A DNA stretch of 39,723 nucleotides, from the IMG/VR virus record IMGVR_UViG_2537562231_000011; one strand, written 5' to 3'. A program made the position numbers and the translations under genes. The notes below the pieces were generated by a model. It was not told the DNA's origin. It worked only from the letters and a program-made list of their open reading frames with translations, and made no database searches. Positions 8,505 to 36,871 of this stretch are shown here, one piece after another; within the stretch, counting starts at the first letter, position 1; each line of letters starts with the position of its first letter. The stretch is from a virus (Duplodnaviria > Heunggongvirae > Uroviricota > Caudoviricetes).

Positions 8505-10592
8505 ATGTTTGCTTCAGTTAAAGAACTGGTTGGATTACCGGGGATGCCGGGAACGGAGCAAGGCGTTCGCTATTCAATCAGGAAGTATGCAACCAGCGAA
8601 ACCAGCAGACGCCGCAAGAAAGGCGCTAAAGGTTTTGAATACAGCATTGACTGTTTACCTGAAGTGACACAGCAGGCATTACGCGAACGTTATGCCCTGC
8701 AACTGATGACGCAAAAAGCCGATGAATCACCGGCTCCGGTGGTGACAAAGGCCAGACGCTCACCTGCCGTGGTTGATGCGGTGGAGGCATATCGCGGATC
8801 ACCCCAACTGATGGTCGAACGCCTCAATGCCCTGACTGAAAACCAGCGCCAGGTGGCAGACGCACGCATTGCGATCGTCAGTGAGGTGCTGAAATTCACG
8901 CAACAACCCGGTTTCAGCTGCGCTAAAGCTATCCGGTTCCTCGTTAACAGCCTGGCACGATCACAACTGGACGAGCGCATTGTGGCAATGGTTGAGACGG
9001 CGAACGCCAAAAAGGGAAACAGCCGCGCGTTGAGTGAAATCACGCTGAAACGCTGGATTGCGGCCTTTAACAAGGCACAGAACGCCGCTGAACGCCTGCT
9101 TTTACTGGCACCGGGTAAACGCCAGGAAATAAAAGCCGAAGATATTAACTGGCTGCCCGAATTTCTGGCGCAGTATCGCCAGTCAAACGGCCGACCAATG
9201 ACCGAGGCTTACGAGGATTTTGTTGCTGAATGGCAGCACCGGCACGCTGATGAGCCTTATATGCTCGATATCATGCCCTCTTATGACACCATTCGCCGCG
9301 CAATGAAGAAACTGCCGGAAGTGGTGAAACAAAAAGGCCGGGTAACTGGCAGTGAATACCGTCAGCTTGAGGGATTCACGCGCCGCGACTGGTCCAGAAT
9401 GCCGGTGAATTATGTCTGGATTGGTGACGGTCACGGCATGAAGCTGAAATGCGCGCACCCGGTTCACGGGCGGCCATTCGCACCGGAAGTGACCTTTGTT
9501 ATCGACGGTGGCACGCGCTTTGTGGTGGGCTGGAGCCTTGACCTGGCTGAAAATGTTTTCGCCGTAGCCGGTGCCATACAGCACGGTATTCGCCATCATG
9601 GCAAACCGTTTCTGTATTACTCGGATAATGGCTCCGGGGAAACCGCCGACGTCCTGGATAAGGAGATTGTGGGGATACTGCCACGACTGGGGATTAATCA
9701 CCCGACAGGGATTGCCGGTAATCCGCAGGGACGGGGCATTATCGAACGGCTTAACCGCACATTACCGATGCGCATAGCCCGTAAATACCGCACCTATTTC
9801 GGGAAAGGAGCAGATCGCGAGACGTTACGTAAAACCAACCGCGATTTACGCTCGGCATTCAGTGCCCTGCAACAGGGCAAACGGCTGAACGCCCGGCAGC
9901 AGTCAGCGATGCGTGATTTACCGTCCTGGTCTGAACTGATTGATGCCATTCGTGACGGTGTTGAGTGGTACAACAACCGGCCGCACGATGAATTACCCAT
10001 GAAGCCGAACGGTAAACATTACAGCCCGGCGGAGTTCAGAAAAAAACGCCTGGCGGAAGAGGACACGGAAATTGAATGGCTGTCCGATGTTGAACTGCGG
10101 GATATGTTCCGGCCGATGGTGGAGCGCCCTGTAAGACGCTGTGAAATACGCTGGCTGAATAATATTTACTACGCGCCCGAGCTGCGTGACGAGCATGGCC
10201 GTAAGGTACTTATCAGCTATGACATTCATGATGCCGAACGAATTACCGTGCGCCGCCCGGATGGCAGCGTGATTTGCGAGGCGGTATGGGACGGCAATAA
10301 ACGCGAAGCCTTCCCTGTCAGCGCGGAATACTACAAACAGCAGCAGCGCCTTAAAGGCATGCGTAAACGCGCAGAGGAAAAAATCCGTGATGCCGAGGAT
10401 GAGGTTGTCAACGTGCTGGAGCACAAGCCGCAGGAGCCCTGGCTGGAAAACATATACCGCCCTGTGGGTAATACGGTGACCGTTCAGCAACCGGTCGCTG
10501 ACGATGAACCTGATGAAGAATACGAGCGTAATTTCCAGCGGGGATTGCAACTGCTCGAAGCGAAATTAAAAGAAAGTGATCCGCTGGCCTGA
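8505..10592 (+). CDS. A: DDE transposase, MuA-like
   Basis: 695 aa (Mu A is ~663). Catalytic-core-like motifs WIGDGHG, YYSDNGSGE and ERLNRTLP in the order expected for the D, D, E triad. Confidence 0.9.
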   Translation: MFASVKELVGLPGMPGTEQGVRYSIRKYATSETSRRRKKGAKGFEYSIDCLPEVTQQALRERYALQLMTQKADESPAPVVTKARRSPAVVDAVEAYRGSPQLMVERLNALTENQRQVADARIAIVSEVLKFTQQPGFSCAKAIRFLVNSLARSQLDERIVAMVETANAKKGNSRALSEITLKRWIAAFNKAQNAAERLLLLAPGKRQEIKAEDINWLPEFLAQYRQSNGRPMTEAYEDFVAEWQHRHADEPYMLDIMPSYDTIRRAMKKLPEVVKQKGRVTGSEYRQLEGFTRRDWSRMPVNYVWIGDGHGMKLKCAHPVHGRPFAPEVTFVIDGGTRFVVGWSLDLAENVFAVAGAIQHGIRHHGKPFLYYSDNGSGETADVLDKEIVGILPRLGINHPTGIAGNPQGRGIIERLNRTLPMRIARKYRTYFGKGADRETLRKTNRDLRSAFSALQQGKRLNARQQSAMRDLPSWSELIDAIRDGVEWYNNRPHDELPMKPNGKHYSPAEFRKKRLAEEDTEIEWLSDVELRDMFRPMVERPVRRCEIRWLNNIYYAPELRDEHGRKVLISYDIHDAERITVRRPDGSVICEAVWDGNKREAFPVSAEYYKQQQRLKGMRKRAEEKIRDAEDEVVNVLEHKPQEPWLENIYRPVGNTVTVQQPVADDEPDEEYERNFQRGLQLLEAKLKESDPLA

Positions 10593-10673
10593 AATAAAAA
10601 ATAACCCGAGGGGTGACTCAGGTTATTTGAGGTTTCAGTCTCGGAGAATGCTGTCTCAAGCGAGGTGAATAAT

Positions 10674-11606
10674 ATGACCGATATTAACGATGTAATCAAG
10701 ACCATTGATGAACTTATTGATGGCGGCGTACTGACGCAGTATGCCATCGCCAGAGAGGCGGGAATTTCCGACGGCACATTATCGGCTTTCCGTAAGGGAA
10801 AATATAAAGGCGATAACGCTGCTGTGGCTGCTTCCCTGCGCTCCTGGTATGAGAACTGGAATAAACAAAGCGCACTGCCGGAACCGCCGCAGTTTGTGGA
10901 AACTCAGACAGTCCAGGAGCTGCGCGCACTGTTTCAGGCGGTTCGCCTGATGGGCTGTATTAACGTTATTGTGGGCGTACCGGGTGTGGGTAAAACGGCC
11001 ACTGCCCGTAATTACTGCCAGGAGCAACCAAACACCTGGATGATCACCCTGTCACCCGCGCACTCCAGCGTCACGGAGTGTCTGCTGGAGCTGGCCGATG
11101 CGCTGGGGATTGATTACACCCGCGCGAACAAAGGGGCATTATCCCGCGCCATCCGCCGTCGCCTGATGGGAACGCGTGGACTGGTGATTGTGGATGAGGC
11201 GGATCATCTTGGTATTGACGGTCTGGAGCAACTCCGGGCAATTCAGGACGCCACGGGGATCGGGATGGTGCTTATTGGTAACCCGCGCGGATTGTTTAAA
11301 GGTGGACGCCGCGCCTTTGATGATTTATCGCGCCTGTTCAGCCGTCTTGCCCGTACAAAACAACTTCGCAAGGCCAAAAAGGCGGATGTGCTGGCCATTG
11401 CCATGGCGTGGGGGATCAGTGGTGAGGCCGAGCTGGCCGTCATGCAGGCTATCGCTGAAAAGCCGGGAGCGTTACGCGTTCTGACACATACGCTTAACCA
11501 GGCGTGGCTCACCGCCAGCGGTGAAGGCGCGGCGCTGACAGAAAAACATATTAATGCGGCCTTTAAAGAGGTTTATACCAACCCTGAATTACTCTCACAG
11601 GTGTGA
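10674..11606 (+). CDS. B: Transposition ATPase / target DNA activator, MuB-like
   Basis: ATG at 10674 with GAGGTG ribosome-binding site (track starts at GTG 10665). Walker A GVPGVGKT and Walker B VIVDEADHL; close collinear match to Mu B as I recall it (EPPQFVETQT, KPGALR). Confidence 0.85.
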   Translation: MTDINDVIKTIDELIDGGVLTQYAIAREAGISDGTLSAFRKGKYKGDNAAVAASLRSWYENWNKQSALPEPPQFVETQTVQELRALFQAVRLMGCINVIVGVPGVGKTATARNYCQEQPNTWMITLSPAHSSVTECLLELADALGIDYTRANKGALSRAIRRRLMGTRGLVIVDEADHLGIDGLEQLRAIQDATGIGMVLIGNPRGLFKGGRRAFDDLSRLFSRLARTKQLRKAKKADVLAIAMAWGISGEAELAVMQAIAEKPGALRVLTHTLNQAWLTASGEGAALTEKHINAAFKEVYTNPELLSQV

Positions 11607-13633: not shown

Positions 13634-14167
13634 ATGATTGATGCAAAAGTGCTTGAAGGGGTTAAAAACTGGCTGTGTATTTATGGCCGCCTGACCTGCG
13701 GTGTACTGGCTGAAAAAATGAATATGCCGCCATCCTCCATGGTTTATTTTTTGCGTGATGCGGTTGATGCAGGCGTGCTGACGGAATGTAACGGTTTTTA
13801 TGATATTCCGCGCCCCCGCCCGGTGCAGCCGGTTCGTCGCAAATGCAGCCAGGAATCTGCGGCTGATGATGTTCAGTGGTGCGGCTTCAGAAAATCCCTG
13901 CCATGGATTGAGGGGCATGATATTCCGTCGATGGCGTGGGAATTTGCTCAGGGCGTTCTGACCTGTGAAACCGTTTATGTGGTGGCTGAAGTTGATGAGC
14001 AGGCCATGAAAGAAGGCGTGCCCCAGTTTGTGATGGCGTATATCGACATACGCCTGGGCGTCATTATCTGCGGTTTAAGCGGCTGGAATATCACTGAACA
14101 TGTTCTGCGCTACCTGATTGTTGACCGGACAGCAGCGCCTGCCGGGATATCTGCGGAGGTGGCGTAA
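13634..14167 (+). CDS. Hypothetical protein (177 aa)
   Basis: Co-directional ORF after an AT-rich 145-bp gap; no recognisable domain. Confidence 0.4.
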   Translation: MIDAKVLEGVKNWLCIYGRLTCGVLAEKMNMPPSSMVYFLRDAVDAGVLTECNGFYDIPRPRPVQPVRRKCSQESAADDVQWCGFRKSLPWIEGHDIPSMAWEFAQGVLTCETVYVVAEVDEQAMKEGVPQFVMAYIDIRLGVIICGLSGWNITEHVLRYLIVDRTAAPAGISAEVA

Positions 14168-14682
14168 TGTTCTTTAAAACATCAAACCCTTCCGCGCTGG
14201 CTGCGTGGCAAAAATACCAGCAGGACTGCCAGAAAGTTAAGGATGAGGCAAAACGCCTTGAGGCCGTGCTGAATGTTGCGTGCCGGTCGGTATTTGTATC
14301 CGGTATCAGTGGATTTTACTTTAAGGGACTGCGTTTTACGGAGGACAAATATCCTTTTCATCGCGACTTATGGCGAAAACCGACTGCGTCGAATGGCTGG
14401 AGCTGCACACCGCGCACATCACGTATCCCTAAAACCCTGCGTGTTGCCTCTGATGAACTGAACAGTCTGTGGCGTGAATATTCGCCCGTCACGTATGCCA
14501 GAACCGATGCGCTGTTGTTCTGGTTGGGTATTGATTTCTCGGCAATCCTGTTTGGCCCTGTGAAGTGGTTCTGCGTTGACGATGTGATTTACCTTCAGTG
14601 CGGCGTAAAACCCGCAAAACAGAAAATGACCGAAATACTGTCTGATGAGTTTTATGCTGCTGAAAAGCGAGTCAGGGGGTGA
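14167..14682 (+). CDS. Hypothetical protein (171 aa)
   Basis: Start overlaps upstream stop (TAATG); no recognisable domain. Confidence 0.4.
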   Translation: MFFKTSNPSALAAWQKYQQDCQKVKDEAKRLEAVLNVACRSVFVSGISGFYFKGLRFTEDKYPFHRDLWRKPTASNGWSCTPRTSRIPKTLRVASDELNSLWREYSPVTYARTDALLFWLGIDFSAILFGPVKWFCVDDVIYLQCGVKPAKQKMTEILSDEFYAAEKRVRG

Positions 14683-14685
14683 TGC

Positions 14686-15237
14686 ATGATGAAATTACAA
14701 CCCATGGGACTAAAAGGTCGCGCCCCCGCTCATGTCCGTCCGTGGACACCTGAAGAAGATGCGCTGCTGATTGCGCTTTATTCATCCACCCCGGTTAAGG
14801 ATATTGCTGCCAGAATAAAAAGAACTGTCTGGGCTGTATATAACCGGACTGGTGTATTGCGCAGTTCATACCCGGAGTTACTGAAATATAAACACCCAAG
14901 ATTTACACCTGATGAAGATAAGTTTATTCGAAAAAATGCCAGAACAATGACCTGCCAGCAAATGGGAGAATATCTCGGACGTAATAAAGATTCTGTCAGA
15001 TGTCGGGCAGGAATGATTGGTGCTGGATTAACAAAGTGCGGAGAGTTACGCCCCGGCACGCGCATATCTGATGATGATGTACGTCTTATACGTGAGCTGC
15101 GTGATTCCGATTACCCACGCCGTCTGTCATTCCGGGAAATTGGCGAAAAGTTTGGAATATCTGAACATTCTGCTCACGCAGTTTATTACCGTCGCCGGAC
15201 TGCCGAGGACGCTGTATTACGGGAGTTAACGCCATGA
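14686..15237 (+). CDS. Hypothetical protein with three HTH / Myb-like repeats; putative DNA-binding
   Basis: Three ~45-aa repeats beginning WTPEEDALL, FTPDEDKFI and ISDDDVRLI, each followed by a helix-turn-helix-like stretch. Confidence 0.4.
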   Translation: MMKLQPMGLKGRAPAHVRPWTPEEDALLIALYSSTPVKDIAARIKRTVWAVYNRTGVLRSSYPELLKYKHPRFTPDEDKFIRKNARTMTCQQMGEYLGRNKDSVRCRAGMIGAGLTKCGELRPGTRISDDDVRLIRELRDSDYPRRLSFREIGEKFGISEHSAHAVYYRRRTAEDAVLRELTP

Positions 15238-15566
15238 TAACGACCTTATTTGTTGAATCAGATGAACCTCTTGTGTGTGCCGCCGGAATGCCGCTCTGTG
15301 GCGGAACGCTGACCGGCGTTTATTTCGGGGATTTGCGCGGTTATCCCTGGCATTCACTGGATGACGCATTTCCGCCTGATATGGAGGCTGTCGTGCTGAT
15401 TGTTCAGTATGGTGACCAACAGGAACTGCGCATCGGCCATATGGGGTATGAAGGCTTTTTTATTGATGAAGAAACCGGAGCCTGCCTTGAAGATGAGGAC
15501 GGACAGGTGACGCACTGGTGCCATCTTTCGGCCTTGCCGGAATTACAGGGGATACATAATGGATGA
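15234..15566 (+). CDS. DUF551-like phage protein
   Basis: 110 aa with W..L.D..PP...V...Q.....VTHW..L..LPE pattern as in the enterobacterial prophage DUF551 family. Confidence 0.45.
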   Translation: MITTLFVESDEPLVCAAGMPLCGGTLTGVYFGDLRGYPWHSLDDAFPPDMEAVVLIVQYGDQQELRIGHMGYEGFFIDEETGACLEDEDGQVTHWCHLSALPELQGIHNG

Positions 15567-15702
15567 GCAAATTGTTGAATGTCCCACCTGTGGAAATGAG
15601 GACCCGGAGTATCTGAAAGAGTGCCCACATTGTGGTGAGATAAAATGTAACCACTGCGATATGGGCGACGACACTGCATGTATAAATTGTGAGGATGAAT
15701 AA
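15559..15702 (+). CDS. Small zinc-ribbon protein (47 aa, four CxxC pairs)
   Basis: Own translation: MDEQIVECPTCGNEDPEYLKECPHCGEIKCNHCDMGDDTACINCEDE. Below the ORF-track length cut-off; start overlaps upstream gene. Confidence 0.4.
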   Translation: MDEQIVECPTCGNEDPEYLKECPHCGEIKCNHCDMGDDTACINCEDE

Positions 15703-15703
15703 T

Positions 15704-15991
15704 ATGGAAAAAGAAATCAAATTTGCGCCTAAATCTATCGACGAAGAACTGGCTAAAATCGGCATGCTTGAACGTATGCGGGACATTATCGAATATGCGA
15801 TAAAAGAAAATCTTGCAGCCAGAGAAGCCCTTTTGATAATGGAGCGGGAGATTAACCTGATTAAGGATGCTGTATCTCTGGATAATAAAATAGCCCGCGA
15901 GGAATACGTTCGCCGTAGGCTCGGTGTTGATGGTTCAGCAATTCTTACATCTGAACATTATGCAAAAATTTTTAATCTTTTTCAGCGGTAA
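15704..15991 (+). CDS. Hypothetical small protein (95 aa, predicted helical)
   Basis: ATG at 15704 two bases after the previous stop; AT-rich; 3' end overlaps the convergent minus-strand gene. Confidence 0.4.
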   Translation: MEKEIKFAPKSIDEELAKIGMLERMRDIIEYAIKENLAAREALLIMEREINLIKDAVSLDNKIAREEYVRRRLGVDGSAILTSEHYAKIFNLFQR

Positions 15992-16211
15992 TCCCCATAC
16001 AGGCCCGGAGATTGTCGAAATGCCAGTCGGTATTAATATATGAGCCATCCTGGATATCTTCTGCATTTTCCGGGGTAGAGTTTTTTTGAGCGAGATTGAT
16101 AATATGTATTGCCTCCTCACGGGAAATCAGCCCCTTATCGAACAGGGTTACCATAAGATTTCCAGCCATTGTGAATGCGGCAACATCAAGTGCATTTTTT
16201 ATATCTGACAT
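15972..16211 (-). CDS. Hypothetical small protein (79 aa), antisense to the early operon
   Basis: Minus-strand ORF with AAGGA-type ribosome-binding site ahead of its ATG; the only credible minus-strand gene inside the unidirectional block; AT-rich. Confidence 0.4.
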   Translation of the reverse strand: MSDIKNALDVAAFTMAGNLMVTLFDKGLISREEAIHIINLAQKNSTPENAEDIQDGSYINTDWHFDNLRACMGITAEKD

Positions 16212-16239
16212 AGATTTTTCCTTTTATGTTAATTGACAT

Positions 16240-16268
16240 GGCGGTGCGGTAACACCGCCCATTTTTTA
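16240..16268 (+). terminator. Rho-independent terminator (GGCGGTG-CGGTAA-CACCGCC then ATTTTTTAT)
   Basis: Perfect 7-bp GC-rich stem followed by T-run, 14 bp upstream of the GemA-like gene. Confidence 0.55.
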
Positions 16269-16281
16269 TGGAGCCACGATA

Positions 16282-16794
16282 ATGAATCGCGCTTCCCTGA
16301 TTACCTTAATACATGTCGCAAAACGCGATCTACAGCTTGACCATGATACCTATACATCCGCGCTGCTGGCAGCCACCGGCAAATCCAGTTGCCGTGATAT
16401 GTCACCCGGTGAGTTATCCCGCGTGCTGGATGTTTTCAAAAAACGCGGTTTTAAAGTGCGTCAGAAGCCGGTTAACCGGGCCTTAAAACCGGGTACGGTG
16501 ACCGCCAAAATTCGCGCCATCTGGAAAGTGATGCACCGGCAGGGATTTATCTCTGATGGCGGGGAAACGGCCCTTAACCGCTGGGTGAAATCGCAGACGG
16601 CCGCGCAGAACGACGGCGAAGGTGTGGCTAACTGGCAGTGGCTGGAGCAACAACCCGCGCTGGCCTCTGATGTGCTGGAGCGTCTCAAACGCTGGCACCG
16701 CCGCAAAATGCTGGCAGCCCTGGATATGTCGGAACGTGCAGTGATGAGTTATGAGCGTGTTTGCAGGCTGTATGAAAAATCATTCCCCCGTTAA
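16282..16794 (+). CDS. GemA-like regulatory protein (Mu gp16 / DUF1018)
   Basis: 170 aa; N-terminal LITLIHVAKRDLQLDHDTY...TGKSS motif typical of the family; position before the Mor/C activator. Confidence 0.65.
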   Translation: MNRASLITLIHVAKRDLQLDHDTYTSALLAATGKSSCRDMSPGELSRVLDVFKKRGFKVRQKPVNRALKPGTVTAKIRAIWKVMHRQGFISDGGETALNRWVKSQTAAQNDGEGVANWQWLEQQPALASDVLERLKRWHRRKMLAALDMSERAVMSYERVCRLYEKSFPR

Positions 16795-16797
16795 CCC

Positions 16798-16830
16798 CAA
16801 ATCCCGCCACAGCGCGGGATTTTTATTTTA
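16798..16830 (+). terminator. Rho-independent terminator (AAATCCCGC-CACAGC-GCGGGATTT then TTATTTTA)
   Basis: 9-bp perfect stem followed by T-run, directly after the GemA-like stop. Confidence 0.6.
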
Positions 16831-16864
16831 AACTTGCCCTGTGTAATGATGACCGGAGGCGGGT

Positions 16865-17287
16865 ATGGCTGAAACACAGATGAGCATGTTTGGTGACAGC
16901 GAACAGCTGCACGCGCTGATTGACCGTCTGGATGATATTCCTGATGATGAGCTGAAAAAGAACTGGCCCGGCACGCTGCGGGACCTGGTTGATGTGATCA
17001 GTGCTGAACTGCACCGTCAGGGGATTGAACCTGCTCAGGCGGGAATGCTTGCCCGTAAGGTTGCAGCCGCACAGGCCGGGTACATGGGCGGGCGTGGTTA
17101 TTATCTCCCGGTCGGTGAATCCCTTTTCACCGAACTGCGCAATAATGAAATTTTTTCCCGCTGGAGCCAGGGCGAAAAAATTGAAACCCTGCGCCGCCAC
17201 TACCAGATGTCAGAGACGCAGATTTACTCCGTTATCCGCAACCAGCGTCGCCTGCATCAGGAACGCACGCAGCCACGGCTTTTCTGA
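16865..17287 (+). CDS. Mor/C-family transcriptional activator
   Basis: 140 aa; C-terminal HTH and overall pattern consistent with the Mu Mor/C family; lies immediately upstream of the lysis cassette. Confidence 0.7.
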   Translation: MAETQMSMFGDSEQLHALIDRLDDIPDDELKKNWPGTLRDLVDVISAELHRQGIEPAQAGMLARKVAAAQAGYMGGRGYYLPVGESLFTELRNNEIFSRWSQGEKIETLRRHYQMSETQIYSVIRNQRRLHQERTQPRLF

Positions 17288-17358
17288 TATTCCGCAAATC
17301 CTGCCCACTTTTTCCCACGGTTACGCTGACTCAGAGAACACCATGAGACAGCGTAACA

Positions 17359-17859: not shown

Positions 17860-17923
17860 ACCGCTTCTGGCGACCGCTCATGATTGCGCTGCTGTGTGCC
17901 GTTGTGCTGCTGCGGGGTGTGCT

Positions 17924-18322
17924 GTGTCTGCGGTGAACAATCCCTTACCGGCCCTGATTGCCGGAGGCTGTATGGCGGCGCTGGGGGTGATGAGCGTGCT
18001 GGCTGCCGTGGTATGGGGAATGCACCAGAAGACGCAGCGCCTTGAGGACAATAATCATGTGCTTGTGCGTGAACGGGACGAAGCCCGTCTGGTGCTGGCA
18101 AACCAGCAACGCACCCTGCAACTCATTTCACAAATCAGCAAGGCGGCCACGAATGAAAAACAGCAGAACATGCAGCACAGCGAGGAACAGCAGAGCATTG
18201 TCCGCCGGTCACTGGCAACGGTGCCTGCTGCCGCTGTGCCTGTGCCTGATGATGTGGCTGACCGGGTGCGGCGGGCCGTCTGTGAAATTCGTCCCTGTGC
18301 CGCCGGTGCCGATCCCCGCTGA
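17924..18322 (+). CDS. i-spanin (Rz-like); start uncertain
   Basis: N-terminal transmembrane stretch (ALIAGGCMAALGVMSVLAAVVWG) followed by a charged, coiled-coil-like region; GTG start at 17924 after GGGG. Confidence 0.5.
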   Translation: MSAVNNPLPALIAGGCMAALGVMSVLAAVVWGMHQKTQRLEDNNHVLVRERDEARLVLANQQRTLQLISQISKAATNEKQQNMQHSEEQQSIVRRSLATVPAAAVPVPDDVADRVRRAVCEIRPCAAGADPR

Positions 18323-20180: not shown

Positions 20181-21844
20181 TGAACAAAGCCAAAGAAAAG
20201 TCTCCTTCACTGATACAAATGACACCTCCCCGCAAAATTGATCTGTCCGGTGAAAAAGCCCTGCTGGGCGTGGATGTGCCGGACAGCCTTGATTTGCCCG
20301 GTGATATGCCGGTGTTTCTGGATTATCAGGCCCGCTGGTTTGCAGATGAAAGTCAGGTCTGCATCGCGGAGAAATCCCGACGCACCGGGCTTACCTGGGC
20401 GGAAGCCGGGCGTAACGTCATTACCGCCGCAAAGCCTAAGCGTCGTGGTGGCCGTAATGTGTTTTATGTGGGGTCAAAACAGGAGATGGCGCTGGAATAT
20501 ATTTCTGCCTGCGCGCTGTTCTCCCGTGCCTTTAACCAGCTGGCAGATGCTGATGTGTATGAGCAGACATTCTGGGATCGGGATAAAAAAGAAGAAATTC
20601 TGACCTACATGATCCGCTTTCCGAACAGTGGATTCAAAATTCAGGCATTGTCTTCCCGTCCGTCAAACCTGCGCGGTCTTCAGGGGGATGTGGTGATTGA
20701 TGAAGCCGCGTTCCACGAGTCACTGGATGAGCTTCTCAAGGCGGCAATGGCGCTTACCATGTGGGGCGCACGCGTGCGCATTATTTCCACGCATAACGGC
20801 GTCGATAATCTGTTTAATCAGTACATTCAGGAAGCCCGCGAGGGGCGCAAGGATTACAGCGTCCACCGCATAACCCTGGATGATGCCATTGCGGACGGGC
20901 TGTACCGTCGTATCTGTTACGTCACCGATCAGGAATGGTCACCGGAAAGCGAGCAGAAATGGCGTGATGATCTCTACAAAAACGCCCCGACCCGTGAGGA
21001 TGCCGACGAGGAATACGGCTGTATCCCGAAAAAATCCGGCGGTGCCTATATTCCTCACGCGCTTATTGAAATGGCGATGATTCGTGACATCCCGATTCTG
21101 ACGTTTGAAGCCCCGGACGACTTCATCAGCCGTGCCGCATGGCTGCGTGAATCGGAAGTTTTAACCTGGTGTGAAGAACATTTAAAACCGCTTACAGAGA
21201 AATTAAATCCCCGTTCCCGCTTCAGCTTCGGGGAAGACTTTGCCCGCACCGGTGACCTGTCCTGCTTTGTGCTGCTGGAAATCACCGAACTCCTGGCAAA
21301 GCGCGAGGTGTTTCGCGTGGAGCTGCGCAACCTGCCGTATGCCCAGCAGGAACAGGTGATGATGTACATCCTGACCCGCGTTCCGGCGCTGGTCGGTGCG
21401 GCGTTCGACGCCACCGGTAACGGCGGCTATCTGGCAGAGGCCGCACTGCTGGCCTTTGGCCCGGACATCATCGACTGCGTGATGTTGTCGCCGAAGTGGT
21501 ACGGCGAGTGGATGCCAAAACTGAAAGCCGAGTTTGAAGATCAGAATATCCTCGTCGCCCGCCATCAGACCACGCTTGATGATTTGCGCCATGTGAAGGT
21601 GGTGAATGGTATCCCGCAAATCGACAAGGGGCGCACGAAGGACCAGAACGCAACGGCTGCGAACGCCCGCCGCCATGGTGATTTTGCCGTGGCACTCTGT
21701 ATGGCAAACCGGGCGTCATACATGGAGGGTTTCATCCTGGATGAATCAGCCTGTCAGGCGCTGCCGGAGCGGTCGCGGGCAATGGAGGGCGGTTATCGTG
21801 ATGACGATGAGGCATATCATGAATTTGATCGGGGGTGCTGGTAG
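20180..21844 (+). CDS. Terminase large subunit (Mu gp28-like)
   Basis: 554 aa; ATPase-like motifs (VVIDEAAFH) followed by a nuclease-type C-terminal domain; correct position. Confidence 0.85.
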   Translation: MNKAKEKSPSLIQMTPPRKIDLSGEKALLGVDVPDSLDLPGDMPVFLDYQARWFADESQVCIAEKSRRTGLTWAEAGRNVITAAKPKRRGGRNVFYVGSKQEMALEYISACALFSRAFNQLADADVYEQTFWDRDKKEEILTYMIRFPNSGFKIQALSSRPSNLRGLQGDVVIDEAAFHESLDELLKAAMALTMWGARVRIISTHNGVDNLFNQYIQEAREGRKDYSVHRITLDDAIADGLYRRICYVTDQEWSPESEQKWRDDLYKNAPTREDADEEYGCIPKKSGGAYIPHALIEMAMIRDIPILTFEAPDDFISRAAWLRESEVLTWCEEHLKPLTEKLNPRSRFSFGEDFARTGDLSCFVLLEITELLAKREVFRVELRNLPYAQQEQVMMYILTRVPALVGAAFDATGNGGYLAEAALLAFGPDIIDCVMLSPKWYGEWMPKLKAEFEDQNILVARHQTTLDDLRHVKVVNGIPQIDKGRTKDQNATAANARRHGDFAVALCMANRASYMEGFILDESACQALPERSRAMEGGYRDDDEAYHEFDRGCW

Positions 21845-23433
21845 TGGGACGCATAATTGATCTTGACGGAAAACCTTTCTCCTTTGACCCGGAGATGCAA
21901 AGTACCGCGCTGGATATTCCGCAGATTGCCAGCCGTTATGTTGAGCATCCCGCCTCGGGTATCACCCCGAACCGGGCGGCGCAGTGCCTTCGCGGGGCTG
22001 AACGTGGCGATCTGATTGCCCAGTCCGATCTGGCGGCTGACATTGAAGAAAAGGACACCCACCTTTTTGCGGAGCTGGGCAAGCGACGTCTTGCCATTCA
22101 GGGGGTGCCATGGAGCATTGAGCCGCCACCGAACGCCAGCGCGAATGAGAAAAAGGACGCGGAAATGCTCGACGAATATCTGCATTCCGCCGACTGGTTT
22201 GATGCCATGTTATTTGATGCCACCGATGCCATCCTGAAGGGCTATTCCTGCATGGAGATTGAGCACGGGATGCTCGGTAAGATGCACATCATCCGCGCCA
22301 TCCGATGGCGTGACAGCGGGCATTTCTGCCTTAACCCGGATGATTTGAGCGAACTGCGGCTGCGTGACGGCAGCCATGCCGGGGTGGCGTTTCAGCCCTT
22401 TGGCTGGATAGTGCATCAGTCGCGTTCACGCACCGGCTACGGTGGTGCGACGGGGCTTGTCAGAACGCTTATCTGGCCGTTCATTTTCAAAAACTATTCC
22501 GTGCGCGATCTGGCGGAATTTCTGGAGGTGTACGGCCTGCCAATGAAGGTCGGGAAATACCCGTCCGGGGCAACACCGGAGCAGAAAAGTGCCCTGATGC
22601 GGGCGGTGATGGATATCGGGCGACGTACAGGCGGGATCATCCCGGCCGGGATGTCGCTGGAGTTTCAGGCGGCAGCGAACGGTCAGGCCGATCCGTTTGA
22701 AACCATGATTTCGTGGGGTGAGCGTTCCATCTCCAAAGCAATACTCGGCGGCACGCTGACCACAGAAGCCGGAGACAAAGGCGCGCGCTCGCTGGGTGAG
22801 GTGCATAACGAGGTGCGCCGGGAAATCAGGGATTCTGATTTACGCCAGCTGGCTGCAACCCTGAACCGCGATCTGGTGTATCCGCTGTATGCCCTGAACA
22901 CCGCCCACGCCATTGATATCCGTCGCCTGCCGCGTATCTGTTTCCAGACCAAAGAACCGGGGGATATCACCAAAATAGCCAGTGCGGTGATGCAACTCAG
23001 TGCGGGGATGGATATTCCTGATCCCTGGGTACGGGATCAGACCGGTATTCCACAGCCCACGCCCGGTGAAGCCATATTCCGTGTCCGTCAGAGCAGTAAT
23101 GAACCGGCCATGCCTGACAGGGAAACGCTACCGGAAAAACAGGAAAAGACAGAACAGACGGCGCTTTCAGCCCGACTGCCGGAAGCGAAAAACACGCCGC
23201 GTGATGAACTGGACGACATGGGGGACGCGGTGCCTGCCCGCCGCTTACAGGAGGCCATCGATCCGGTGCTGGAGCCGGTCATTGATGTCATCAGAACGCG
23301 GGGGCTGGCGGAGGCACTGGCAGACCTGCCTGCCCTTTACCGTGAAATGGATGATTCCCGCCTGATGACGCTGCTCAGTGATGCCATGTTTGCTGCGGAA
23401 ATGAAGGGGATGCTGGATGGCTCAGGGGATTGA
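21835..23433 (+). CDS. Portal protein (Mu gp29 / DUF935-like)
   Basis: 532 aa, size and position; GTG start overlapping the terminase end. Confidence 0.8.
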   Translation: MLVVGRIIDLDGKPFSFDPEMQSTALDIPQIASRYVEHPASGITPNRAAQCLRGAERGDLIAQSDLAADIEEKDTHLFAELGKRRLAIQGVPWSIEPPPNASANEKKDAEMLDEYLHSADWFDAMLFDATDAILKGYSCMEIEHGMLGKMHIIRAIRWRDSGHFCLNPDDLSELRLRDGSHAGVAFQPFGWIVHQSRSRTGYGGATGLVRTLIWPFIFKNYSVRDLAEFLEVYGLPMKVGKYPSGATPEQKSALMRAVMDIGRRTGGIIPAGMSLEFQAAANGQADPFETMISWGERSISKAILGGTLTTEAGDKGARSLGEVHNEVRREIRDSDLRQLAATLNRDLVYPLYALNTAHAIDIRRLPRICFQTKEPGDITKIASAVMQLSAGMDIPDPWVRDQTGIPQPTPGEAIFRVRQSSNEPAMPDRETLPEKQEKTEQTALSARLPEAKNTPRDELDDMGDAVPARRLQEAIDPVLEPVIDVIRTRGLAEALADLPALYREMDDSRLMTLLSDAMFAAEMKGMLDGSGD

Positions 23434-24748
23434 TTTAGGTTATGCCGCCACGCTTCCCTCAAAAGAGACGGTGGCATACTTCCGCGCCAAAGGGGCGCAT
23501 ATCAGCTGGAACTGGTTCGAAACAGACGCGGATGTTCATGCCCGCTCATTCACGGCAGCAAAAACGGCACGGCTGGATGTGGTAACCACATTACAGGCCG
23601 AAGTGCAGCGGGCCATTGATGAGGGGATTTCACAGAAAGAATTTATCCGCACACTGACGCCACGCCTGCAAAAGCTGGGATGGTGGGGAAAGCAGATTGT
23701 GGTGGACAGCGACGGTAACGCGGAAGAAGTGCAGCAGGGCAGTCCCCGTCGTCTGGCGCTGATTTACAACGTGAACACCCGTGTGGCTTACAATGCCGGG
23801 CGTTACACGCAGATGATGAACAACACGGACACGCATCCGTTCTGGCAGTATGTGGCGGTCATGGACAGCCGTACCCGCCCGTCGCATTCCGCCCTTAACG
23901 GTCTGGTATTCCGCTATGACGATCCGTTCTGGAAAACACACTACCCGCCCAATGGCTGGAACTGCCGCTGCCGTGTGCGGCCATTGTCTCAGGCCCGTCT
24001 GGATGCAATGGGGTTATCCGTTTCATCCGGTGAGGATCATCTCTCCACCCGCAATGTTGAGGCTGGCGTGGATAAACAGACCGGAGAAGTCAGAGAAATG
24101 CCGGTGACCACATATTCAGATGGCGCCAGAACCATGACACCGGATGTGGGCTGGTCATATAACCCCGGCTCGGCAGCGTTCGGCACAGACCAGGCGCTGA
24201 TCCGCAAACTGATCGAGGTGAAAAGCCCGGCGTTACGGGAAATGGTGGTTCAGGAGATGAACAACAGCCCGGAGCGGCAGCTGGCGTTCCGCATCTGGGC
24301 AAAAAACATCATGCAGACCCGGCGAGGTGGTAACGATATCCGCACGCTGGGCTTTATGACTGAAAGCATTGCGCAGGCAGTGGAAAGCCGGACGGGAACG
24401 CCACCGGCCCGCCTGCTGGCGATGAGCGGTAAAAATGTGCTCCATGCGGACAGTGTGAAACATCAGAATGACGGCATCGCTCTGACGCCGGAGGACTTCG
24501 GGCGCTTACCGGCAATGCTGGCAAGGCCAAAAGCGGTACTGTGGGACAAACGGCACAACAATCTGATGTATATCGTGGAAAATCAGGATGGCAGTGTGCA
24601 GATTGCCGTTAATGCACCGTACAGTCTGAAACGTCAGCCCGACAAACTGGATGTGATTGTGAATGCTTACCGGGTTATCAATATGGATAAGCTGAAATCG
24701 GATATCCGGGGCGGAATGCTTGAGGTGCTGGAAGGACAAATTGATTAA
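23417..24748 (+). CDS. Head morphogenesis protein (Mu F / gp30-like)
   Basis: 443 aa; motifs RTRPSH...NGWNCRCR typical of the phage head morphogenesis (F-like) family. Confidence 0.8.
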   Translation: MAQGIDLGYAATLPSKETVAYFRAKGAHISWNWFETDADVHARSFTAAKTARLDVVTTLQAEVQRAIDEGISQKEFIRTLTPRLQKLGWWGKQIVVDSDGNAEEVQQGSPRRLALIYNVNTRVAYNAGRYTQMMNNTDTHPFWQYVAVMDSRTRPSHSALNGLVFRYDDPFWKTHYPPNGWNCRCRVRPLSQARLDAMGLSVSSGEDHLSTRNVEAGVDKQTGEVREMPVTTYSDGARTMTPDVGWSYNPGSAAFGTDQALIRKLIEVKSPALREMVVQEMNNSPERQLAFRIWAKNIMQTRRGGNDIRTLGFMTESIAQAVESRTGTPPARLLAMSGKNVLHADSVKHQNDGIALTPEDFGRLPAMLARPKAVLWDKRHNNLMYIVENQDGSVQIAVNAPYSLKRQPDKLDVIVNAYRVINMDKLKSDIRGGMLEVLEGQID

Positions 24749-24749
24749 C

Positions 24750-24830
24750 GGTCAGTGGCGGGGGTCGAACCCGCATACATGATCCACCCGGAGGCAGGCA
24801 CCGACTTTACCAGTTAAGCGTACACTGACC
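24750..24830 (-). ncRNA. tRNA-like structured element (T-arm and D-arm consensus, no anticodon stem); function unknown
   Basis: On the minus strand: 9-bp closing stem, D-arm-like GCTT-AACTGGTA-AAGT and T-arm GCGGG-TTCGACC-CCCGC. I could not form an anticodon stem. On the plus strand it is followed by TGTTTATTTTAT. Confidence 0.25.
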
Positions 24831-24869: not shown

Positions 24870-25343
24870 ATGTCATCCATTGATGCAGCTGTCGTTGTTG
24901 ACGTTACGCGTCTCCAGCGAGTGTTTGCCCGGCTTCAGTTTGTGGGCGGCGGAAAAGACCTGGCCCGCAGTGTGGCGGCGAGTCTTCTGTCATCGTCAGA
25001 AATGGCGTTTGAGCAGGAAAAAGAGCCGGATGGTGAACGCTGGCATGACTGGTCAGATCCTTACCGTGAGTGGCGTACCCGTAAGGGATACACGCCCGGC
25101 AAAATCCTGACGCTGAACGGCGATCTGGCCCGCCGCCTGACCACGGATTATGGCGATACCTGGGCGCTGATTGGATCAAATGAACCTTATGCAGCCATTC
25201 ATCAGTGGGGTGGCCTGCCTGGTATGCCACCGGGACCGGCGGCCATTGGCGCACGTCCGTATATGGGCTTTGATCAGGTGGCAGAACAGGAGATCATGGA
25301 CGAAATCAGAAAACGCTTTAAAAAGGCCACAGAAACGCCGTAA
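24870..25343 (+). CDS. Virion morphogenesis protein (Mu G / gp31-like)
   Basis: 157 aa with GCGGAGG ribosome-binding site; position between F-like and I-like genes. Confidence 0.7.
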   Translation: MSSIDAAVVVDVTRLQRVFARLQFVGGGKDLARSVAASLLSSSEMAFEQEKEPDGERWHDWSDPYREWRTRKGYTPGKILTLNGDLARRLTTDYGDTWALIGSNEPYAAIHQWGGLPGMPPGPAAIGARPYMGFDQVAEQEIMDEIRKRFKKATETP

Positions 25344-25520
25344 TGGTTTAAGGTATGCAAACGTATTACCTTACCCCCTTCAGGCGCGTGTCGTGATTTT
25401 CTAACCTGTATTTAACGGGCTTTAAAATCTGCGTGAAGCGCCTTTCTCATTCCCCCCCTGTCAGCACTTTCTGAAGTCCCGCAAAACCAGCCCCAAAAAT
25501 ACCCGGCTTATGCTGCCGGT
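25344..25520 (+). promoter_or_regulatory. G-I intergenic region: candidate late promoter and candidate strong gyrase site
   Basis: 177 bp with no credible ORF; C-rich tracts (CCCCCCC, CAGCCCCAAAAATACCC); about 18.1 kb from the inferred left end, the position of the Mu centre. Confidence 0.35.
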
Positions 25521-26654
25521 ATGAAGACAGAAAATCACCCAAAAGACGCAAATCGCCCCTCCGGTTTAGCCGTGCTTTCAGCTTCGCTGACTGCATCCGG
25601 CGACGGATGGTGTCAGTTACTGCCAGCCGGTCGGGTAAAGGCCCGTGACGGTCGCCCGGAAAAACCGACTGAAGGCTGGCTGATTAACGAATCCGCCTGT
25701 AACCGGATGAAAGCCGGGCTTTCCGCCCTGCATCAGCCGTTACTGATTGATTATGACCATCACTCCGTGAATGCGCAGAAAAACGGATTCAAGGCTATTG
25801 CTGCAGGATGGGTTAAGCCGGAAAACATCGAATGGCGTGAGGGTCAGGGGGTTTTCATTAAACCTGAATGGACACCACAGGCACAAAAACATATTGATGA
25901 CCGTGAATATGCCTATCTGTCTGCATATATGCATTATTTCGCTGACACCGGGGAACCCTACCTGTTGCGCATGGCTTCCCTGACGAATGATCCGGGTATT
26001 ACGGGTATGAACCCTGTCGCGGCACTCAGTGCTGATGATCTCTATGTCGTTTCCCCTTCTCAGGAGCAATCCCCCATGAATGAGCAATTACGCCAGTTGC
26101 TGACGGCGCTCGGTCTGACCGTGGCTGACGGTGACGAATTTACACCGGAACTGGGCACGGCGGCGCTGTCTGCCCTTACCGGGATCAAAACCCGTGCGGA
26201 TGCGCACGACACCCTGAAAACGCAGGTTGCCAGCCTGTCGGCAGAACTGGAAACCGCAAAAGGCACACCAACTGGCGGCACTATTGATCTGACGAAATAT
26301 GTGCCCGTTGAGACGTATAACGCCCTGCGTACCGAATATGCCGCGCTGTCGGCACAACACGGCAGCACCACGCTGGAGCAGTTGCTGGATAAGGCCGAGT
26401 CCGAAGGACGCATTTTCAAAAGCGAACGCGGATACATGGAAGGACTCGGACAACAGATTGGCGTCGCGGCACTTTCTGCACAGCTTGACGCCCGCCAGCC
26501 GGTTGCGGCTCTGACCACTCTTCAGACCGACACCGTAACCGTGCCGGATAAAAAGACCGCCACCGCTGTGCTGTCGGCTGAAGATATCGCCGCCGCACGT
26601 CTGTTGGGTAAAACCGAAGCCGAGTTCCTGAAAATGAAAGAGGAAATGCAATAA
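25521..26654 (+). CDS. Head maturation protease / scaffold (Mu I / gp32-like)
   Basis: 377 aa; position before the major head gene; Ala-rich coiled-coil C-terminal half consistent with a scaffold domain. Confidence 0.75.
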   Translation: MKTENHPKDANRPSGLAVLSASLTASGDGWCQLLPAGRVKARDGRPEKPTEGWLINESACNRMKAGLSALHQPLLIDYDHHSVNAQKNGFKAIAAGWVKPENIEWREGQGVFIKPEWTPQAQKHIDDREYAYLSAYMHYFADTGEPYLLRMASLTNDPGITGMNPVAALSADDLYVVSPSQEQSPMNEQLRQLLTALGLTVADGDEFTPELGTAALSALTGIKTRADAHDTLKTQVASLSAELETAKGTPTGGTIDLTKYVPVETYNALRTEYAALSAQHGSTTLEQLLDKAESEGRIFKSERGYMEGLGQQIGVAALSAQLDARQPVAALTTLQTDTVTVPDKKTATAVLSAEDIAAARLLGKTEAEFLKMKEEMQ

Positions 26655-27601
26655 TGCCTACCCCGATTACACCGGCGATGATCACCGCCCTGATGACGGG
26701 CTACCGTTCTGATTTTCAGGCCGGGATGTCCATGGCTCCGTCGCAGTACCAGAAAATTGCGATGACCGTGCCGTCCACCTCGAAATCCAACACCTACGGC
26801 TGGCTGGGGCAGTTCCCGCAGTTCCGTGAGTGGATCGGCTCCCGCGTCATCGAGAAGATGAAAGCCTATGGCTACGCCATCGTGAACAAAACCTTTGAAG
26901 GCACCGTTGCCATTAGCCGCGATGACTTTGAAGACGACAATCTCGGCATCTACTCCCCGTTATTCCAGGAAATGGGTCGTGCCGCTGCGGCACAACCGGA
27001 TGAACTGGTCTTTGCTGCACTGCGTGATGGTCTGAATGCGGCCTGCTATGACGGCCAGAACTTCTTTGATACCGAACACCCTGTTTACCCCAAAGTGGAT
27101 GGCTCCGGTGATGCACAGATGGTCAGCAATATGTTTGTGGCAAAAACCGGCTCTGTCGGTGCACAGGCGGATTACAGCGGCCCGGCCTGGTATCTGCTTG
27201 ACTGCTCCCGCGCGGTAAAACCGCTGATTTATCAGGATCGCCGCAAAGCCGAACTGGTTGCCCAGACAAAAGTCGATGAAGGCCGTGCGTTTACTGATAA
27301 CGAGTTTGTGTTCGGTGCTTCCGCCCGTCGCAATGTGGGCTACGGCTTCTGGCAGATGGCCTACATGATGCAGTCACCGCTGACGCTGGATGCGCTGTGG
27401 CACGGCTGGTCAGCCATGCGTGACTTTAAGGCTGACGGTGGCCGCAAACTCGGCATCAAACCCACCCATATTGTTGTCCCCACCTCGCTGGAAAAACAGG
27501 CGGTGCAGCTGCTGGAGCGCGAGCTGTTCGCAGACGGTAACGCCACAGTCTCTAACGAGATGAAGGGCAAGCTGGAGCTGGTTGTCGCGGATTATCTGTA
27601 A
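26654..27601 (+). CDS. Major head subunit (Mu T / gp34-like)
   Basis: 315 aa; start overlaps the I-like stop (TAATG); size and position. Confidence 0.8.
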   Translation: MPTPITPAMITALMTGYRSDFQAGMSMAPSQYQKIAMTVPSTSKSNTYGWLGQFPQFREWIGSRVIEKMKAYGYAIVNKTFEGTVAISRDDFEDDNLGIYSPLFQEMGRAAAAQPDELVFAALRDGLNAACYDGQNFFDTEHPVYPKVDGSGDAQMVSNMFVAKTGSVGAQADYSGPAWYLLDCSRAVKPLIYQDRRKAELVAQTKVDEGRAFTDNEFVFGASARRNVGYGFWQMAYMMQSPLTLDALWHGWSAMRDFKADGGRKLGIKPTHIVVPTSLEKQAVQLLERELFADGNATVSNEMKGKLELVVADYL

Positions 27602-35159: not shown

Positions 35160-36267
35160 ACTGTATATCGGTGGCAGTATTTTTTCCGGCTGGCTGACGG
35201 TCAGCGTCCGTCGCTCGCTGGAGCATCTGGCCGGGTCGTTTGAACTGGGGCTGATGCTGCCCGGTGAGCGCATCCCCTCAGCCCTGCGAACCGGTCAGTC
35301 CCTGACGCTCAGAATTAACGGGCAGACGGTCATCAGTGGCTGGCTGGATCAGGTCAGTCAGCGGATCAGTGCAACCCGTCATCAGATCAGCATCAGCGGT
35401 CGGGATAAAACCGGCGACCTGGTGGACTGTGCCGCCATCCATCCCGGCAGCCAGTGGCGCAACCGGACGCTGGCACAGATTGCCGCAGATTTATGTGCGC
35501 CCTTCGGGATAGCCGTGCGCTGGCAGGTTAACGACGACACGGCTGCACGCCCCTTCAGCTCTTTTACGCTGGAAAACTCAGAAACCGTGGCGGATGCGCT
35601 GACCCGTGCTGCCCGGCATCGCGGGGTGCTGGTGACCAGTAATGCTGACGGCGATCTGGTGTTCACCCAGGCAGGAAGCCAGCAGACGGACAGACTGGTG
35701 CTGGGAGATAACCTGCTTGATGCCGATTACAACACGGACTGGCGAGGACGATACAGCGAATACCGTGTCCGGGGACACGGGCGCGGTGGTGGCAAACGGG
35801 GAGACAGCGAATCCGCCGCCCGTCTGGCAGCACCTGTGGGCGTCATCAGTGATGAGCAGATCGGCCGCTACCGGTCGAAAATCATCCTCGCCGATCAACA
35901 GACAGACACCACCGGTGCACGGCAGCGTGCCCTGCGTGAAATGCGCCGTGCGATTGCCCGTTCAGAACGGTTTTCTGCCACCGTGCGTGGCTGGTTCCGG
36001 GATGATGGCCGGTTATGGGATGTCAATCTGCTGACCGGTGTTTCAGCCCTGCGTTTCGGTATAGAACAGACTGAACTGCTGGTCTGTCAGGTGGAGTTTT
36101 TACTTGATGAACATAACGGGGAAGTCACCCGGCTGGTACTGGCACCGCGTGACGGCTTTATCGTTCCGGCAGAGCCGGACAGTAAGGGCCGGGGTGGTTC
36201 CGGTGACGATGTTGATGCCTTTATTCGCCAGCAGATGAAAAAACAGGGGATCAGCTTTGATGAATGA
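35143..36267 (+). CDS. Baseplate hub protein (Mu P / gp44-like)
   Basis: 374 aa; GTG start; position. Confidence 0.7.
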   Translation: MSSRIELYIGGSIFSGWLTVSVRRSLEHLAGSFELGLMLPGERIPSALRTGQSLTLRINGQTVISGWLDQVSQRISATRHQISISGRDKTGDLVDCAAIHPGSQWRNRTLAQIAADLCAPFGIAVRWQVNDDTAARPFSSFTLENSETVADALTRAARHRGVLVTSNADGDLVFTQAGSQQTDRLVLGDNLLDADYNTDWRGRYSEYRVRGHGRGGGKRGDSESAARLAAPVGVISDEQIGRYRSKIILADQQTDTTGARQRALREMRRAIARSERFSATVRGWFRDDGRLWDVNLLTGVSALRFGIEQTELLVCQVEFLLDEHNGEVTRLVLAPRDGFIVPAEPDSKGRGGSGDDVDAFIRQQMKKQGISFDE

Positions 36268-36871
36268 TGAAGTGTTCAGCCGCCTGATTGCCCCGGTAAC
36301 GCGCGGTATTCGCCTGTTGTTTGGCCGGGGCGTTCTGACCGGCACACATGACGAACTGAAAATGCAGAATGTGCAGCTCACCGGCATGGACGGCGAAACC
36401 TTTGATGATGTGGAGCGTCCCCAGCAGTACGGGCAGATCAGCGTTCCCCTGCCGGGTGCGGAAACCTTTTTTGCCTGTCTGGGCGGACAGCGGGATCAGA
36501 CTGTGGTGCTTGTGGTGGAAGACCGGCGCAGCCGCCCGACCGGACTCACAGCCGGAGATACGGGGGTGTATCACCATGAGGGGCACCGGATACGGTTAAC
36601 AAAGGATGGTCGCATTATTGTGACATGCAAAATGCTGGAGATTTACGCCGATGAGGGGATGCGGGTGGATACGCCGGAGGCCACCTTTACGGGCAATGTG
36701 ACGGTGGATAAAAACCTGCATGTTAAGGGTAATTTCGTGCTTGATGGTACAGGTAAATCAGACGGGCTGTTCACGATGTCTGATGCCGTTATTGCCGGGA
36801 TCACCTATTCCGGCCATGTGCATCAGGATAACGGCAAAGGCAGTAAGACAGGAGCGCCGGAGAATGGCTGA
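36260..36871 (+). CDS. Baseplate spike / assembly protein (Mu gp45, V-like)
   Basis: ATG at 36260 (track begins at TTG 36257); ~200 aa; position. Confidence 0.65.
   Translation: MNDEVFSRLIAPVTRGIRLLFGRGVLTGTHDELKMQNVQLTGMDGETFDDVERPQQYGQISVPLPGAETFFACLGGQRDQTVVLVVEDRRSRPTGLTAGDTGVYHHEGHRIRLTKDGRIIVTCKMLEIYADEGMRVDTPEATFTGNVTVDKNLHVKGNFVLDGTGKSDGLFTMSDAVIAGITYSGHVHQDNGKGSKTGAPENG

Follow-up and report, generated by a model that had tools for sequence, protein, structure and literature searches.

The G-I intergenic gap of an Sp18-group transposable prophage as a probable central control region of the Mu type

Bacteriophage Mu carries a strong gyrase site (SGS) in the interval that separates its G and I genes, near the middle of the genome, with an annotated cut at 17,880 of 36,717 bp (0.487 of the length). 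The terminator of the Mu lys transcript was reportedly mapped to the same G-I region by Zha, Zhao and Howe in 1994, and Oram and Pato are said to have described, in 2004, the central gyrase site of the prophage of strain Sakai. [quoted passage not shown] According to a 2023 review that covers Pato's work, the sole foreign site, of all those tried, able to replace the SGS in Mu replication is that of the Sakai Mu-like prophage (PMC10052514). The late activator C of Mu, for its part, binds a 16-bp imperfect dyad centred at -43.5, in promoters that have a -10 hexamer and lack a -35 hexamer (PMC2582627).

Here we compare with these elements the G-I gap of a Mu-like Escherichia coli prophage contained in a 39,723-bp viral sequence (IMG/VR record IMGVR_UViG_2537562231_000011; the whole of this stretch is called the window below). 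The gap is the counterpart of the Mu central control region and belongs to a well-understood kind of element; it is not a new one. On the evidence set out below we think it likely that the prophage is a transposable one of the Sp18 group and that the gap serves as its central control region, combining an SGS, a probable terminator and a late promoter.

The last base of the G-like stop codon is 25343, the I-like gene opens with an ATG at 25521, and the gap between them (25344-25520) therefore measures exactly 177 bp. The G-like gene (24870-25343, plus strand; Pfam Phage_tail_S, E 1.2e-33) encodes a virion morphogenesis protein with about 55% amino-acid identity to Mu G and is the last gene of the lysis/head (lys-to-G) operon, and the I-like gene (25521-26654, plus strand; Pfam Mu-like_Pro, E 2.7e-88) encodes a protease/scaffold protein. 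Pfam also identified homologues of the Mu transposase MuA (8505-10592), MuB (10665-11606), the Mu portal protein (21835-23433), F (23417-24748) and the major head protein T (26654-27601), and for all seven of these genes the Mu order is kept. The gap itself holds no credible open reading frame, being overlapped by short spurious ones at most, and an Rfam search of it matched no family. The initial annotation had described a 177-bp gene-free interval between G-like and I-like genes, and Pfam and the reading-frame coordinates bear this out. Across 25200-25700 the window is 100% identical to a prophage of Escherichia coli JE86-ST05 and about 87% identical to a prophage carried by many Shiga-toxin-producing strains; the latter prophage is Sp18 of O157:H7 Sakai, as shown by 100% identity between the Sakai sequence and the aligned O157:H7 locus.

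A neighbouring intergenic region also drew our attention. The F-like and G-like genes are separated by 121 bp, whereas F and G overlap in Mu, and on the minus strand this interval contains a tRNA-like element (24750-24829) that matches the Rfam tRNA model with 31 bits (gathering score 29). Its acceptor, D and T arms are good and its anticodon/variable region is oversized; RefSeq lists it as 'tRNA-OTHER' in the JE86-ST05 copy, and ARAGORN made no call on 24750-24829.

Whether the gap is central depends on where the prophage ends. The left end, TATAACCAGGTGAATCATTTGATACC (7295-7320, plus strand), served as the reference point for the calculation. Close relatives inserted independently in sgrR, elyC, citD and other sites all lose their match to the window within 7293-7295, and the alignment of the JE86-ST05 copy, with 99.2% identity, begins at exactly 7295; for these two reasons we take 7295 as the left end. 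The distance from there to the gap is 18,049-18,225 bp, in agreement with the distance of about 18.1 kb given in the initial annotation. The right end is outside the window, and the total length was estimated from relatives as 38.6-39.3 kb (38,635 bp for the JE86-ST05 copy, 38,759 bp for Sp18 and 39,337 bp for an annotated Mu-like insert in an Stx phage). On this estimate the gap sits at about 0.46-0.47 of the genome length, 1.1-1.6 kb to the left of the exact centre, and the Sp18 gap, at 18.26 kb of 38.76 kb, is likewise at 0.47. In Mu, a site shifted about 6 kb off-centre lowers end synapsis just 3- to 7-fold (PMC3820752), and for that reason the position of the gap can be counted as central. 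The earlier placement of the gap at the genome centre therefore holds in the form of a near-central position, about 0.47 on a length estimated from relatives, as against 0.487 in Mu.

The ends of these prophages have features of their own. The Mu-like prophage of the window is inserted in the tail tape-measure gene of another prophage (5580-7307; junction 7294/7295), the flank up to 7294 matching genes that other E. coli genomes list as 'phage tail tape measure protein', and the junction itself occurs in 0 of the 5,426 complete E. coli genomes searched. At 7295-7296 the left terminus begins 5'-TATAACC, as it does in several independently inserted relatives, and 5'-TGTAACC in Sp18 and the Stx-phage insert. 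The right terminus reads ...GCGCTATA-3' in all three copies in which it is readable (L003, L010 and L011), which is a TA end, as opposed to the CA typical of Mu, and the target duplications of the same three copies are of 4 bp (CGTG, TAAA and AGAG), not 5 bp.

The most direct link between the gap and the Mu SGS is a 27-bp island, CGTGATTTTCTAACCTGTATTTAACGG (25392-25418), which matches Mu 17908-17934 at 23 of 27 positions. The initial annotation had proposed alignment with the Mu G-I sequence as a check, and similarity is indeed present, limited to this island. The local alignment of the two gaps scores 34, whereas 500 shuffled sequences gave 16.4 +/- 2.3 with a maximum of 26 (z about 7.5), and the island is offset from the G stop codon by the same distance in both phages. 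Counted rightward from the annotated gyrase cut of Mu (17879/17880), it occupies nucleotides 29-55, inside the SGS right arm. The gap outside the island showed no alignment with Mu. The genes on either side have 56-66% DNA identity to those of Mu; about 6% of aligned 27-mers reach 23/27, all of them coding except for the island, and no further non-coding 27-mer at this level was found from F to T.

One could suppose that the gap is a neutral spacer and that its resemblance to Mu arises by chance or is a functionless leftover of common ancestry, and a global alignment of the whole gap with that of Mu, at 45% identity, is indeed close to random. Such an explanation sits badly with the shuffle z of about 7.5 and the identical offset from the G stop codon, with an island conserved between clades to the degree of the best 6% of coding 27-mers, and with the dyad-plus-hexamer described below, which recurs at three intergenic sites where about 0.005 would be expected by chance. 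We regard a neutral spacer as very improbable.

In a wider search, a 24-bp pattern taken from the island core (25395-25418) was found in 39 IMG/VR contigs, which were chosen by exact match to the island and which fall into just two clades, Mu-like and Sp18-like. It stands 51-52 nt past the G stop codon in every one of these contigs that includes the end of G, and upstream of an I homologue in all that reach I. In the representative genomes of 185,579 species the island-core pattern had no match and a search with the I protein yielded no confirmed locus; as both species-wide searches came back empty, we have no intermediates between the Mu and Sp18 clades.

The comparison with Sp18 provides a link to an experiment. 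Overall, the gap is 90% identical to that of Sp18, and this figure is made up of 96% in 25344-25446, 73% in 25447-25476 and 86% in 25477-25520. In the first of these segments 4 of 103 positions differ, and in 25379-25446 only 1 of 68. The Sp18 gap is in turn 100% identical to the O157:H7 locus of our alignment (L008). From the description in the review cited above, we infer that the fragment tested from the Sakai prophage is the Sp18 G-I gap. Of 5,426 complete E. coli genomes, 228 contain Sp18-like prophages.

Sequence variation in this clade also has a mosaic aspect. A boundary runs through the gap, divergence beginning at about 25447 (window 25447-26654 compared with L005-L009 and L012-L050). 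Throughout the Sp18-like clade there is near-identity over G and over the left 103 bp of the gap, but the I proteins of the relatives range from about 51% to about 99% identity with that of the window, with main groups near 64% and at 97-99%.

Within the gap, the parts of a gyrase site can be assigned tentatively. An imperfect palindrome, AAGGTA...TACCTT (25350-25372), at which a hairpin is seen, encloses the predicted gyrase cleavage zone (about 25356-25367). The Mu cut lies about 29-31 nt upstream of the conserved island, and in register with it gyrase is predicted to cut after about 25363. Two stretches here, GGTAT^GCAA (25352-25360) and CGTAT^TACC^TTACC (25362-25375), resemble the palindromic core GGTAT-N4-ATACC of the Topo-Seq consensus. 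The predicted right arm follows at 25368-25446.

Positions 25379-25445 are almost invariant in the 13 haplotypes of the Sp18-like clade; in the left half of the gap, polymorphism among relatives is greatest at 25350-25372. The Mu clade likewise shows no variation in the homologous right arm, its variable positions being to the left of the cut site and around it. This within-clade pattern fits a site of which the right arm is essential and the left arm dispensable, and the invariance in the Sp18-like clade may be due in part to a G module inherited from a recent common ancestor. Spectral power at 10-11.5 bp, used to gauge A/T phasing, places the putative right arm in the top 6-9% of prophage windows, and the Mu right arm in the top 1-2%, by a measure that discriminates weakly. 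We also tried a crude gyrase score built from the published 133-bp consensus (PMC6379681); it ranked the Mu SGS only about sixth, at a position 5 bp off, and was discarded as unreliable. In sum, the proposal in the initial annotation that the gap is a candidate SGS is supported by an island that falls in the Mu right arm, by 96% identity to Sp18 over the left 103 bp and by a position of about 0.47; neither an absence of Mu similarity nor a clearly off-centre location was found.

The initial annotation had named two elements in the gap, and to these we add a third, a hairpin that overlaps the right arm of the SGS. It is long and imperfect (25382-25443) and with its tail, UUCUCAUU, extends over 25382-25451 on the plus strand, folding as RNA with -23.7 kcal/mol (z -3.9). 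In the window, in Sp18 and in Mu alike, the conserved island lies at the loop and inner stem. Sp18 has the same hairpin followed by UUUGUAUUUUU (z -2.8), and in Mu a hairpin at 17907-17948 is followed by a U-rich tail (z -3.0). In the window, UUCUCAUU runs into seven C residues and makes a poor U-tract; a simple terminator scan called the hairpin in none of the three sequences. We consider the case evenly balanced for this hairpin being the Rho-independent terminator of the lys-to-G operon. As the island is within the hairpin, the constraint on it could act at the level of DNA, of RNA or of both.

It is here that a purely transcriptional explanation of the gap has to be weighed. The gap might serve as punctuation and nothing else, a terminator followed by the I promoter, its island conserved as part of the terminator hairpin, with no special affinity for gyrase and no part in synapsis, and this would suit the location of the island in the middle of a stable hairpin in all three sequences, an A/T phasing of the arm that is unremarkable and a consensus-based gyrase score that failed its positive control on Mu. 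The corresponding stretch of Mu, however, lies within the experimentally defined, essential right arm of the SGS, and, according to the review, the Sakai site, which is nearly identical, can take the place of the Mu SGS (PMC10052514). Moreover, a near-central position is kept in three prophages of differing length, and whereas terminator hairpins usually tolerate change, both arms of this one are conserved and no compensatory substitutions were found among the sequences compared. We therefore regard punctuation alone as unlikely, and continue with the reading in which an SGS and a probable terminator occupy the same stretch.

The right part of the gap appears to contain a late promoter of the I operon. 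An 18-bp imperfect dyad, TTTCTG-AAGTCC-CGCAAA (25468-25485, plus strand), is the predicted site of a C-like activator, and 23 nt past it stands the predicted -10 hexamer TATGCT (25509-25514, plus strand), with no match to a -35 hexamer. The motif was defined with the help of the late promoter of the lysis gene (17281-17327, plus strand), which has the dyad TTTCTG-ATATTC-CGCAAA (17281-17298) and the hexamer TACGCT, and whose -10 and downstream sequence, TACGCTGACTCAGAGAA, is homologous to that of Mu Plys, TAGACTGCCATCAGAGAA. Around the dyad, the upstream regions of the lysis gene and of I have 21 of 27 positions in common, and TAYGCT follows in both at identical spacing; taken alone, this similarity is of modest significance (p about 0.03). 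The composite TTTNNG-N6-CNNAAA-N22-23-TANNNT occurs in the window at these two sites only, the chance expectation being about 0.005 per strand. A third match, with one mismatch in the dyad, was found in the JE86-ST05 copy beyond the end of the window, upstream of a DUF6645 gene, and this site had been left out when the composite was defined. All three sites are intergenic and on the plus strand. In Sp18 the dyads and hexamers are kept and the spacers between them have diverged, and the -10 hexamer TATGCT is conserved in all relatives.

The presumed factor for this promoter is a late activator of the Mor/C family, encoded at 16865-17287 on the plus strand (Pfam Mor, E 7e-31). The protein has 40% identity with Mu C (E 2e-37) and 28% with Mu Mor, and its gene is directly upstream of the lysozyme gene, as C is in Mu. 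Taking +1 as 7 nt past the hexamer, a predicted start, puts the centre of the dyad at -44.5. A sigma-70 scan of the plus strand of the gap gave no full promoter. That a late promoter precedes I is well supported, and the activator on which it is predicted to depend is the C-like protein.

The initial annotation had deduced a C-dependent late promoter from the C-rich tracts upstream of the I-like gene. The promoter stands, in the form of the dyad and TATGCT that recur at the lysis gene; the C-rich tract as its signal does not. In place of the C7 tract (25452-25458), Sp18 has T5C4, and other relatives have C9 or a differently flanked C7; the tract belongs to the tail of the hairpin, not to the conserved promoter signals. 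The comparison of the lysis, I-like and tail operons for a shared motif, also proposed in the initial annotation, gave a partial result: the lysis gene and I have it, but no dyad-plus-hexamer was found upstream of the tail genes, nor was an equivalent of Mu PP. As a separate candidate we considered a 16-mer, YCCGCAAAWCCWGCCC, that the lysis-gene and I upstream regions have in common; it had no further good matches, was not significant alone and was replaced by the dyad-plus-hexamer.

An alternative position for the late promoter, further upstream and collinear with Mu PI, which corresponds in essence to the proposal of the initial annotation, was suggested by the alignment of TCCCGCAAAAC (25477-25487) with TCCCGCAAACT, which contains the -10 that we assign to Mu PI, and of CCCCTG with Mu CCCCAG. 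The activator site would then be the C-rich stretch at 25450-25463 and the -10 would be CAAAAC (25482-25487), giving a leader of about 30 nt, which is more conventional than a leaderless transcript. CAAAAC, however, is without the near-invariant final T of a -10 hexamer, and the C tract that would form part of the activator site is the one replaced by T5C4 in Sp18 and variable in length elsewhere. CGCAAA, furthermore, occurs also at the lysis-gene promoter, about 23 nt upstream of a -10 homologous to that of Mu Plys; its place there marks it as part of an activator site and not as a -10. The upstream promoter thus seems improbable to us, and we keep to the dyad at 25468-25485 with the hexamer at 25509-25514.

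With that assignment, transcription would start at the I ATG or within a few nucleotides of it, the predicted +1 being A25521. No Shine-Dalgarno sequence precedes the ATG in any of the relatives, and, with the predicted +1 on the ATG, the I transcript may be leaderless. For a gene that has to supply its product in large amounts, such a start point would be unusual. On the minus strand, an inverted repeat, CCGGC-TTATGCT-GCCGG (25503-25519), encloses the predicted -10 and is conserved in Sp18; it is followed by a T-run and looks like a terminator, though scan matches of this kind were no more frequent than in shuffled sequence.

Two further observations concern late regulation in this prophage. 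Among the open reading frames tested (13634-17287) there is one Mor/C-family gene, directly after the GemA homologue, whereas Mu has both Mor and C, and the regulatory cascade may be one step shorter than that of Mu. The DUF6645 gene (684 aa) mentioned above sits between the invertase and com/mom; its upstream dyad-plus-hexamer is at 36242-36288 in the JE86-ST05 copy (L002) and at 35861-35907 in Sp18 (L011), and this accessory gene may be subject to late control.

These elements can be combined in a model of how the gap would work. [quoted passage not shown] The RNA of the same stretch, through the hairpin (25382-25443) and its pyrimidine-rich tail, would end the lys-to-G late transcript. A dimer of the C-like protein (16865-17287) would bind the dyad (25468-25485) and help sigma-70 RNA polymerase at TATGCT (25509-25514), which has no -35 partner, and transcription of the I/T head operon would begin at or within a few nucleotides of the I ATG (25521). 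The more specific form of this model, in which one stretch does double duty as SGS arm in the DNA and as terminator in the RNA, and in which a C-like activator with a non-Mu dyad drives a leaderless I mRNA, we put forward as a tentative possibility.

There is little here that is new in kind, the Mu layout of a central gyrase site beside the late promoter of the I operon having been kept in Sp18-like prophages. What the comparison adds is, first, that a 27-bp piece of the right arm is the sole part of the SGS conserved between the Mu and Sp18 clades, which narrows what may matter in the site. It also supplies a candidate operator sequence for the late activator of the Sp18 type and, finally, a late phage transcript whose possible lack of a leader can be put to the test.

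Among the closest described systems is the central site of Sp18. It is orthologous to the site of the window: over 25344-25446 the two agree at 99 of 103 positions, and over 25379-25446 at 67 of 68. It has the same hairpin and the same place in the prophage. It differs by two substitutions in the predicted cleavage zone (25362 and 25364) and by a tail after the hairpin that is T-rich in Sp18 and C-rich in the window, and at the prophage level the left terminus is TG in Sp18 and TA here. The Mu SGS has the same flanking genes and a similar near-central position (0.47 here, 0.487 in Mu); of its essential right arm, 27 bp recur here with 23 identical positions and an equal distance to the G stop codon, and in each clade variation lies around the cut site and in the left arm while the right arm is invariant. 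The remainder of the Mu site, in contrast, is unalignable, the sequence around the expected cut differs, the window is without the first A/T tract of Mu (+10 to +21) and its A/T phasing is weaker.

The transcriptional elements show the same mixture of likeness and difference. As at the Mu lys terminator, where a stable hairpin and a U-rich tail come directly after G, a hairpin with a U- or pyrimidine-rich tail is present in Sp18 and in the window, although the hairpin of the window is longer and has a GC-rich outer stem (AGGCGC/GCGCCU) that is absent in Mu. Compared with the C-dependent promoters of Mu (Plys, PI, PP and Pmom), the half-sites differ, being TTTCTG/CGCAAA here and TTAT/ATAA in Mu, and the predicted start is on the ATG, whereas Mu PI, by our estimate, gives a leader of about 25 nt that includes a Shine-Dalgarno sequence. 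Like the Mu promoters, however, those of the window have a -10 and no -35 hexamer, with a dyad at about -44 (-43.5 in Mu), and this layout recurs in front of both the lysis gene and I, with a C homologue encoded just upstream of the lysis gene.
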